23,040 bases of DNA. Source: a virus. Lineage: Duplodnaviria; Heunggongvirae; Uroviricota; Caudoviricetes. The notes under the pieces were generated by a model. The model did not search any database. It saw only the letters and a list, made by a program, of their open reading frames with translations, and was not told the origin of the DNA. The position numbers and the translations under genes are program-made. The DNA lies in the IMG/VR virus record IMGVR_UViG_2671181056_000005, positions 1-23,040 of that record; one strand, written 5' to 3'. Positions 21,701 to 23,040 of the stretch are shown piece by piece; position 1 is the first letter of the stretch, and the number at the start of each line of letters is the position of its first letter.

Positions 21701-21844
21701 TCGTTAAGTTGGTAACGTTGGTATTCGTCTGATCAACTCGCGCATTAATATCTGTCTTGTTCTTGTTAATTGTCGCGTTGATAGTATCGCGGGTTGAAGT
21801 AATAGTCTGATTCAGTTCAGTCTTAGCAGCCGCCAGAGCGTTAG
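18702..21844 (-). pseudogene. Side tail fiber gene with C-terminal intramolecular chaperone (peptidase S74-like) domain; 5' portion cut off by the IS5 insertion
   Basis: C-terminal ~117 aa begin SDSRLK (autoproteolysis motif) and end in coiled coil; N-proximal TNLTNTV repeats; no start codon in the phage-derived part, the frame runs into IS5. Confidence 0.7.
21841..21844. other. IS5 target site TTAG (YTAR) flanking the left end
   Basis: Tetranucleotide immediately before GGAAGG; the second copy would lie just beyond the window end. Confidence 0.6.
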
Positions 21845-23040
21845 GGAAGGTGCGAACAAGTTCCTGATATGAGATCATCATATTCATCCGGAGCGCATCC
21901 CAGAGGGACATCATGAGCCATCAACTCACCTTCGCCGATAGTGAATTCAGCACTAAGCGCCGTCAGACCCGAAAAGAGATTTTCCTCTCCCGCATGGAGC
22001 AGATTCTGCCATGGCAGAATATGACCGCTGTCATCGAGCCGTTTTATCCCAAGGCGGGCAATGGCCGACGGCCCTATCCGCTGGAGACCATGCTGCGTAT
22101 TCACTGCATGCAGCATTGGTACAACCTGAGCGACGGTGCCATGGAAGATGCCCTGTACGAAATCGCCTCCATGCGCCTGTTTGCCCGATTATCCCTGGAT
22201 AGCGCCCTGCCGGATCGCACCACCATCATGAATTTCCGCCACCTGCTCGAGCAGCATCAACTGGCCCGTCAATTGTTCAAGACCATCAATCGCTGGCTGG
22301 CCGAAGCAGGCGTCATGATGACCCAAGGCACTTTGGTGGATGCCACCATCATTGAGGCACCCAGCTCTACCAAGAACAAAGAGCAGCAACGCGATCCGGA
22401 GATGCATCAGACCAAGAAAGGCAATCAGTGGCACTTTGGCATGAAGGCCCACATTGGTGTCGATGCCAAGAGTGGCCTGACCCACAGCCTGGTCACCACC
22501 GCGGCCAACGAGCATGACCTCAATCAGCTGGGTAATCTGCTTCATGGAGAGGAGCAATTTGTCTCAGCCGATGCCGGCTACCAAGGAGCGCCACAGCGCG
22601 AGGAGCTGGCCGAGGTGGATGTGGACTGGCTGATCGCCGAGCGTCCCGGCAAGGTAAAAACCTTGAAGCAGCATCCGCGCAAGAACAAAACGGTCATCAA
22701 CATCGAATACATGAAAGCCAGCATCCGTGCCAGGGTGGAGCACCCGTTTCGCATCATCAAGCGGCAGTTCGGCTTCGTGAAAGCCAGATACAAGGGGCTG
22801 CTGAAAAACGATAACCAACTGGCGATGTTATTCACCCTGGCCAACCTGTTTCGGGTGGACCAAATGATACGCCAGTGGGAGAGATCTCAGTAAAAACCGG
22901 AAATAACGCCAGAAATGGTGGAAAAAATAGCCTAAATAGGCTGATTCGATGTGTTTACGGGAAAAAAATCGGCCCAGATCCGCGAAATTTTAATCAGCGA
23001 GTCAGCTTGGGAAGAAATGACCTGCTTATTCGCACCTTCC
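21845..23040 (+). mobile_element. IS5 insertion sequence (IS5 family), complete copy ending at the window edge
   Basis: Left end GGAAGGTGCGAACAAG (21845-21860); right end CTTATTCGCACCTTCC (23025-23040), a 15/16 inverted repeat; ~1196 bp; encodes InsH. Confidence 0.9.
21913..22893 (+). CDS. insH: IS5 transposase InsH (DDE), 326 aa
   Basis: Protein [13 protein letters not shown]...RQWERSQ matches IS5 transposase as recalled. Confidence 0.9.

Follow-up and report, generated by a model that had tools for sequence, protein, structure and literature searches.

The window analyzed here, a stretch of 23,040 bp that makes up the entire draft contig CXFJ01000065.1 of assembly GCA_001255095.1, carries at its right end what sequence comparison identifies as a very recent insertion of ISKpn26 into a prophage tail fiber gene. 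A simple recent insertion that left a null fiber allele is, with high probability, the correct reading of this locus. The contig is on record in 2 samples, and its fiber protein, WP_252857901.1, is assigned to Shigella sonnei in the protein collection. As for the general layout, positions 1-43 are the terminal 43 nt of IS4, which is inserted in ydcR; they stand next to the ydcR start and were identified as IS4 by a match adjacent to the E. coli insG gene, a single genome having as many as 32 matching places. A chromosomal stretch with the ydcR start and a hicB remnant follows (44 to about 300), and then one end of a prophage with a large serine recombinase (about 300-21844). The contig is flanked by IS elements on both sides, of which only the right-hand one, the ISKpn26-type element, is whole. 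The prophage, which is of the siphovirus type, has hicB of a Shigella sonnei isolate as its integration site.

The IS5-family element of the ISKpn26 type occupies positions 21845-23040 on the plus strand and, as read and measured from the sequence, is 1196 bp long (not 1195). The terminal inverted repeats are 16 bp long and agree in all but one position (15/16): the transposase-proximal end (21845-21860) reads GGAAGGTGCGAACAAG, and the transposase-distal end (23025-23040) is the reverse complement of GGAAGGTGCGAATAAG, its last base being the last base of the contig. Imperfect 16-bp repeats of the form GGAAGGTGCGAA(C/T)AAG and a length of ~1.2 kb are typical of the IS5 family, and so is the transposase, which matches PF01609 (DDE_Tnp_1, 1.7e-35) and PF05598 (DUF772, 3.3e-21), both above the curated cut-offs. 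This InsH/Ins5A-like protein of 326 aa is encoded at 21913-22893 on the plus strand and shows 0 differences from WP_032425692.1 in locus L016. The G+C content equals 53.8% in the IS and 41.9% in the phage DNA. The boundaries of the element are considered right because they coincide to the base with those of 2 complete copies at other loci, each of which stands between duplicated 4-bp sites (L016, CTAA/CTAA; L017, CTTG/CTTG).

According to nucleotide identity, the element belongs to the ISKpn26 type. Along its whole length it shows 100% identity to a copy on an E. coli chromosome (NZ_CP082773, 3690849-3692044) that is flanked by CTAA/CTAA and labelled "IS5-like element ISKpn26 family transposase" by PGAP, and further PGAP-labelled copies of the ISKpn26 family show 99.1-99.7% identity; the assignment is thus made by proxy, through identity to PGAP-annotated copies. 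Identity to IS5 proper is 91.5% for a copy annotated "IS5 family" and 91.6% for the IS5 of P1 and that of the phage 434 record. In ISfinder practice, isoforms are at least about 95% identical at the nucleotide level. The first-pass annotation had described a complete IS5 with terminal inverted repeats and a TTAG target site that interrupts a minus-strand fiber gene. The IS5-family element, its repeats, its DDE transposase, and its position next to TTAG were all recovered, and the name IS5 is right at the family level; as IS5 sensu stricto the element does not qualify. One phage record names it IS5D. Short database proteins that terminate in ...KEGANKQVISSQADSLIKISRIWADFFP(V/A)NTSNQPI, a read-out of the transposase-distal end of the IS, number in the hundreds and come from Escherichia, Klebsiella, Enterobacter, and Citrobacter, which shows how often chimeras of host genes and IS elements get called as proteins.

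On its left side the element abuts the tetranucleotide TTAG (21841-21844; CTAA on the fiber coding strand). The target consensus of IS5 is C(A/T)A(G/A) (PMC11677980), which this left flank fits; the right flank falls beyond the contig end. A comparison with uninterrupted homologues, which had been proposed as a check on the insertion, was run with 14 sequences, 4 of them from complete E. coli genomes and 10 from other assemblies. All 14 have an empty site: they are colinear with the window through TTAG, and every alignment stops at 21844 and diverges at 21845. Written with a slash at this point, they read ...GCGTTAG/CCGCTTCGG..., or also ...GCCAGAGCGTTAG/CCGCTTCGGTTTTATT..., and TTAG occurs once and in the same place in each of them (14/14). 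Their intact fiber genes encode 1162-1181 aa. Since 14 colinear homologues diverge exactly at 21845, the insertion is more than a chance resemblance. The insertion point falls after nucleotide 391 of the fiber gene, in terms of codons after codon 130 of 1177.

The closest intact allele, L012 (1177 aa), which is recorded in E. coli isolates too (P0122), differs from the 3143-nt remnant in the window by 3 substitutions, all of them synonymous. So small a number of differences over 3143 nt shows that the insertion is recent, and with all three substitutions synonymous (3/3) the remnant has not decayed. The junction of fiber and IS is absent from all 5426 complete E. coli genomes, and the exact left-junction pattern is also absent from the species-representative genomes (one per species). 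The chimeric protein WP_252857901.1 is on record from the contig of the window only.

What remains of the fiber gene (18702-21844, minus strand) corresponds to codons 131-1177 of the intact gene and is otherwise undamaged. It retains the Pfam domains Gp34_trimer and Peptidase_S74, the latter a C-terminal intramolecular chaperone, and matches phrog_1699 "long tail fiber distal subunit" (1.7e-120) as well as gp34 fragments in PDB (2e-16). Approximately 2.5 kb of the gene (window 18779-21265, minus strand) has ~78% nucleotide identity to gene 37 of the virulent T-even-like phages RB49, Phi1, and PHB13. Judging by the homology of shaft and tip and by the C-terminal chaperone, the fiber is a gp37-type long tail fiber. 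The fiber module is common to temperate siphovirus-type and virulent myovirus genomes.

The part lost by the remnant amounts to 391 nt of the gene, which comprise the start codon and 130 codons, and the native ribosome-binding site is cut off together with them. In the relatives the native start is preceded by the Shine-Dalgarno sequence GAGGTGA (−7.7 kcal/mol). The N-terminal 130 aa are nearly invariant in 4 relatives; the rest of the protein is mosaic, with 44-98% identity per 100-residue block. Residues 3-48 of the intact relatives match positions 6-51 of phrog_1699 (gp37 family), and we take them to resemble the N-terminal IQFKR...GELAINL...TKD motif of T4 gp37. This conserved N-terminal gp37 motif is present in all intact relatives and missing from the remnant in the window. 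A structure search with the lost N-terminal part returned no matching solved structure. Because of its conservation, and by analogy with other fibers, the lost N-terminus is presumed to be the part through which the fiber attaches to the virion.

The fiber gene is part of a siphovirus-type tail module on the minus strand that consists of fiber, tail tube, gp38-like adhesin, 2 chaperone-like ORFs, tape measure, distal tail protein, and J-like tip. The tail tube gene (18172-18645, minus strand, 157 aa) lies directly downstream of the fiber gene; it matches phrog_158 "major tail protein" (1.2e-20) and is called "phage tail tube protein" in relatives. The gene for the gp38-like tail fiber adhesin (17491-17997, minus strand, 168 aa) is identified by Pfam Gp38_N (3.6e-15) and phrog_1121 "tail fiber adhesin" (1.5e-33), and its product is likely a partner of the fiber. 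Between the adhesin gene and the tape measure gene (809 aa) stand the two chaperone-like ORFs, and the distal tail protein gene comes after the tape measure; these genes, as well as the one for the J-like tip protein (1258 aa), are all on the minus strand. The fiber gene is flanked by two tail-tube-like paralogues, both of phrog_158: a 277-aa gene upstream in the relatives (L012 5496-6329) and the 157-aa gene downstream. The order of genes is unusual in that the gp38-like adhesin gene is located between the tube and chaperone genes, apart from the fiber gene. A G+C-rich hairpin, GGGAGGTTAACGCCTCCC, followed by a T-rich run, is conserved between the 277-aa gene and the fiber start (L001 7427-7500 and equivalents). 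This terminator-like element stands within the late gene cluster, a hint that late transcription may need antitermination.

A lambda-type Stf/Tfa side tail fiber was considered for this gene and rejected. In the direction of transcription the gene precedes those for the tube, the chaperones, the tape measure, and the tip, instead of lying distally after J/lom, and the next genes encode the tube and the gp38-like adhesin, not a Tfa protein, the ORFs beyond the tip gene having been scanned in part. The label "side tail fiber gene" proposed earlier is thus kept as to a tail fiber gene hit in its 5' part and given up as to its type, the gene being gp37-like and without the position of lambda stf.

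The insertion creates a chimeric ORF of 1070 aa with an IS-encoded N-terminus (WP_252857901.1; 18702-21914, minus strand). That this ORF is a chimera starting at an ATG at 21914 inside the IS had been recognized by the first-pass annotation, and the IS-derived leader (21845-21914, minus strand) was measured here at 23 1/3 codons, i.e., 23 residues and the first base of a Pro codon. The leader has five ATG codons and a weak Shine-Dalgarno sequence. The ORF begins at an ATG 70 nt into the element and follows an in-frame TGA (21923) at a distance of three codons, and the Shine-Dalgarno pairing of this ATG reaches −4.1 kcal/mol vs −7.7 kcal/mol for the native start. Within the phage-derived part, the first in-frame starts are a TTG at codon 156 and an ATG at codon 233, neither with a Shine-Dalgarno sequence. 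Of the three frames that read outward from this end of the IS, two are open and include an ATG, in ISKpn26 and IS5 proper alike, and the same open outward frame is found in other copies of the IS and in IS5 proper.

As for transcription, a scan of 21500-23040 revealed no sigma-70-like outward promoter on the fiber strand, and a pattern scan found three terminator-like hairpins on this strand inside the IS (4 sites vs 1.4 ± 1.4 expected). One terminator-like hairpin with a T-run (22929-22942, minus strand) is located ~100 nt inside the IS and has a fold energy of −6.5 kcal/mol; it is a consensus match only, and it overlaps the predicted stop codon of the displaced 5' fragment. In both cases of activation by IS5 that PMC11894529 describes, fucAO and glpFK, the activated operon points the same way as the transposase gene. 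The fiber gene in the window is divergent from the transposase gene, opposite to the fucAO and glpFK arrangement, and runs in the direction of the opposite-strand ins5CB operon, the promoter of which is reported as negligible (PMC11677980). Since two of three frames are open by themselves, the Shine-Dalgarno sequence is weak, hairpins are present and a promoter is not, and the orientation is divergent, the 1070-aa ORF is an accidental read-out of the IS end that was accepted by gene callers, not an evolved fusion. Between the two fates suggested at first for the fiber, inactivity or expression as a truncated fusion, inactivity is favored; the fusion is unlikely in view of the chance ATG, the weak Shine-Dalgarno sequence, the absence of a promoter, and the loss of the motif.

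No base of the contig follows the IS, as had also been pointed out for the window, which is identical to the whole contig of 23040 bp; the far junction, the target duplication, and the fiber 5' fragment are therefore off the contig. For a simple insertion, the far junction is predicted to read CGCACCTTCC-TTAG-CCGCTTCGGTTTTATT and to lead into the missing 391 nt of the fiber gene and then the gene of 277 aa, and we infer that the fiber 5' fragment lies just beyond the IS. Neither the left nor the predicted right junction pattern occurs in IMG/VR. The predicted reciprocal product has 167 aa and consists of the first 130 residues of the fiber and an IS-encoded tail, KEGANKQVISS...; among the short proteins listed, a homology search with it gave only other fusions of genes with IS ends and more distant fiber fragments, and exact look-ups of four predicted variants gave no match. 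A circular contig with the fiber 5' fragment at its start was rejected: the window does not contain this fragment, and the start of the contig (1-43) belongs to IS4.

The two ends of the contig appear to have been formed differently. The short IS4 overhang of 43 nt is the usual de Bruijn contig overhang into a repeat. The right end seems to result from extension or gap-filling through a multi-copy IS, halting where the flanks of the copies diverge, and the genome probably contains at least two copies of the ISKpn26-type element. The IS interior on the contig may thus be a consensus of several copies, which makes the completeness of the IS at the fiber locus itself less certain.

The main rival to a simple insertion regards the IS as a rearrangement breakpoint: recombination or transposition between IS copies, subsequent to the insertion, would have caused the loss or inversion of the prophage half on the head side, leaving a remnant, and the fiber 5' fragment would then be not adjacent or gone. 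We consider this unlikely, even if several observations are consistent with it. The contig stops precisely where the IS does, so that at least 2 copies with different flanks are implied; the genome is IS-rich, the other contig end being an IS4 inside ydcR; IS1 and IS2 are found in relatives of the prophage family; and the reciprocal junction and the 5'-fragment product were not found in the collections searched. These negatives, however, are weak, because short fragments may be hidden in the clusters of full-length proteins or remain uncalled, and the other contigs of the assembly are outside the collections. Moreover, the fiber remnant and the whole tail module are undamaged, as expected of a very recent simple event, and simple insertion is the common outcome.

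It is improbable that the chimeric ORF is expressed from the IS ATG, by late read-through or from a weak promoter on the ins5CB side, and that a truncated fiber trimerises and binds its receptor, changing the host range or acting off the virion. In favor of it, all 1070 codons of the ORF are open, Gp34_trimer and the S74 chaperone domain are preserved, and the ORF is co-directional with ins5CB, which may be co-transcribed with a co-directional target gene (PMC11677980). However, an in-frame ATG is a 2-in-3 chance outcome, and this one combines a weak Shine-Dalgarno sequence with a position three codons after an in-frame stop; in addition, the ins5CB promoter is reported as negligible, terminator-like hairpins stand on the fiber strand inside the IS, and the conserved N-terminal motif for attachment is missing. 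An assembly artefact, i.e., a false join of fiber and IS at the contig end in a genome that really has an intact fiber gene with an uninterrupted GCGTTAGCCGCTTCGG, is more improbable still. Such an error might be suspected in a draft short-read contig that has a whole IS at one end vs 43 nt of IS4 at the other, which points to gap-filling or extension. The join is, however, exact to the base, with the first base of the IS repeat abutting a consensus target tetranucleotide, a signature of transposition that is unlikely for a misjoin, and the contig is recorded in 2 samples.

Under the preferred reading, a simple recent insertion, an ISKpn26 copy would have transposed into CTAA after codon 130 of the 1177-codon gp37-like fiber gene and parted the gene body from its strong ribosome-binding site, start codon, and N-terminal gp37-type motif. 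From the loss of these three parts the allele is expected to be null, and we infer a loss of fiber function. If the prophage is otherwise intact and late read-through takes place, fiberless particles relying on the J-like tip protein would be produced. Alternatively, the 1.2-kb insert would be polar and lower the expression of downstream tail genes, giving tail-less rather than fiberless particles. Such polarity on the downstream tube, tape-measure, and tip genes, with the tube gene affected first, had not been raised by the first-pass annotation; it may occur because the fiber gene is upstream of the tail genes and the insert of 1.2 kb is largely untranslated in the fiber direction and has terminator-like hairpins. 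Transcription might in principle extend into the remnant, either from the ins5CB side of the IS or as late read-through of the phage. There is very little chance that a soluble, virion-detached truncated fiber made from the IS ATG blocks the receptor against related phages, or that precise excision of the IS serves as a reversible host-range switch.

The prophage family (window 300-21844; loci L001, L002, and L004-L015) is widespread in E. coli and integrates via its serine recombinase; in strain H2 the site is hicB in the vicinity of ydcR, and in PSJ-22 it lies near ycdY. No close cultured relative of the prophage was found, the best match of the tail tip protein being phage DCP80 with 38% amino acid identity, and DNA similarity to deposited phages is limited to the fiber, helicase, and IS segments. 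IS1 or IS2 occurs in several of the related prophages, and IS hits seem to be recurrent in the family (P0004; relatives H80, H87, and H88). In P0004 (93 aa), another member of the fiber family, the fiber sequence breaks off after residue 68 and gives way to GFAPIFPDTCYHLTHYWPAAADIPV, a tail that we take to be the read-out of an IS2 end. The window also contains a UvsW-type helicase gene (4965-6464, plus strand; UvsW_N, ResIII, and Helicase_C) with ~76% nucleotide identity to helicase genes of RB49-like (Krischvirus) virulent phages. It is adjoined by two endonuclease-like ORFs of phrog_681 (3065-4249, minus strand, and 4405-4974, plus strand), the first of which contains a CapR domain and carries the label GIY-YIG nuclease in relatives. 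Helicase and endonucleases form a cargo block that some related prophages have (PSJ-22) and others lack (strain H2).

The biological importance of the finding is small: it adds one more case of IS-driven decay of a prophage gene in Shigella. The element, its choice of target, and the disruption of a gene are all known, and what is new is the instance in an IS-rich Shigella genome. The practical implications concern annotation. RefSeq describes WP_252857901.1 as a "tail fiber domain-containing protein", although its first 23 residues are IS and the true N-terminus is lost, and such chimeras can pollute fiber alignments and host-range predictors. Likewise, calls of prophage "intactness" on draft assemblies miss lesions at contig ends. 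The comparison with the intact allele also provides a clean dated example, in which 3 synonymous differences point to a very recent event.

In comparison with known systems, the element is without difference from ISKpn26 (IS5 family, IS5 group), with 100% nucleotide identity over 1196 bp, an identical transposase, 16-bp repeats, and a 4-bp duplication in the reference copies; only the location is new. With IS5 proper (lambda KH100 and E. coli K-12 insH) it shares the family, the repeats, the length within 1 bp, the target consensus, and the layout of ORFs on opposite strands. It differs from IS5 proper, however, by a nucleotide identity of ~91.5%, by 9 transposase substitutions, and in the stretch from the transposase start to the end repeat, where IS5 proper has a leader of its own, MMNPVLWLQMTNM.... 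Insertions of IS5-family elements into phage-borne genes at CTAA-type sites, which likewise produce split pseudogenes, are represented by lomR::IS5 in Rac and nmpC::IS5 in DLP12, both of them K-12 prophages, and by IS5 in P1; in contrast to them, the target in the window is the fiber gene of an uncharacterised serine-recombinase prophage, with one junction visible.

As for the expected phenotype, the lambda PaPa stf frameshift and T5 ltf (L-shaped fiber) mutants have lost an accessory long fiber and kept the central tail-tip receptor-binding protein. Such a loss of fiber is expected to make adsorption slower or narrower, not necessarily to abolish viability. The lesion in the window, in contrast, is an IS and may be polar, since the fiber gene is upstream of the tail genes. 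Finally, T4-type gp37 (RB49/Krischvirus) resembles the fiber in the N-terminal IQFKR...GE.A..L.D...YTKD motif of the intact relatives, in a body with 78% nucleotide identity, in Gp34_trimer and S74, and in a gp38-like adhesin nearby. The fiber of the window, however, belongs to a temperate siphovirus-type prophage, its gene is located between two tube-like genes, and the N-terminal motif is followed by an Asn/Thr-rich repeat region.
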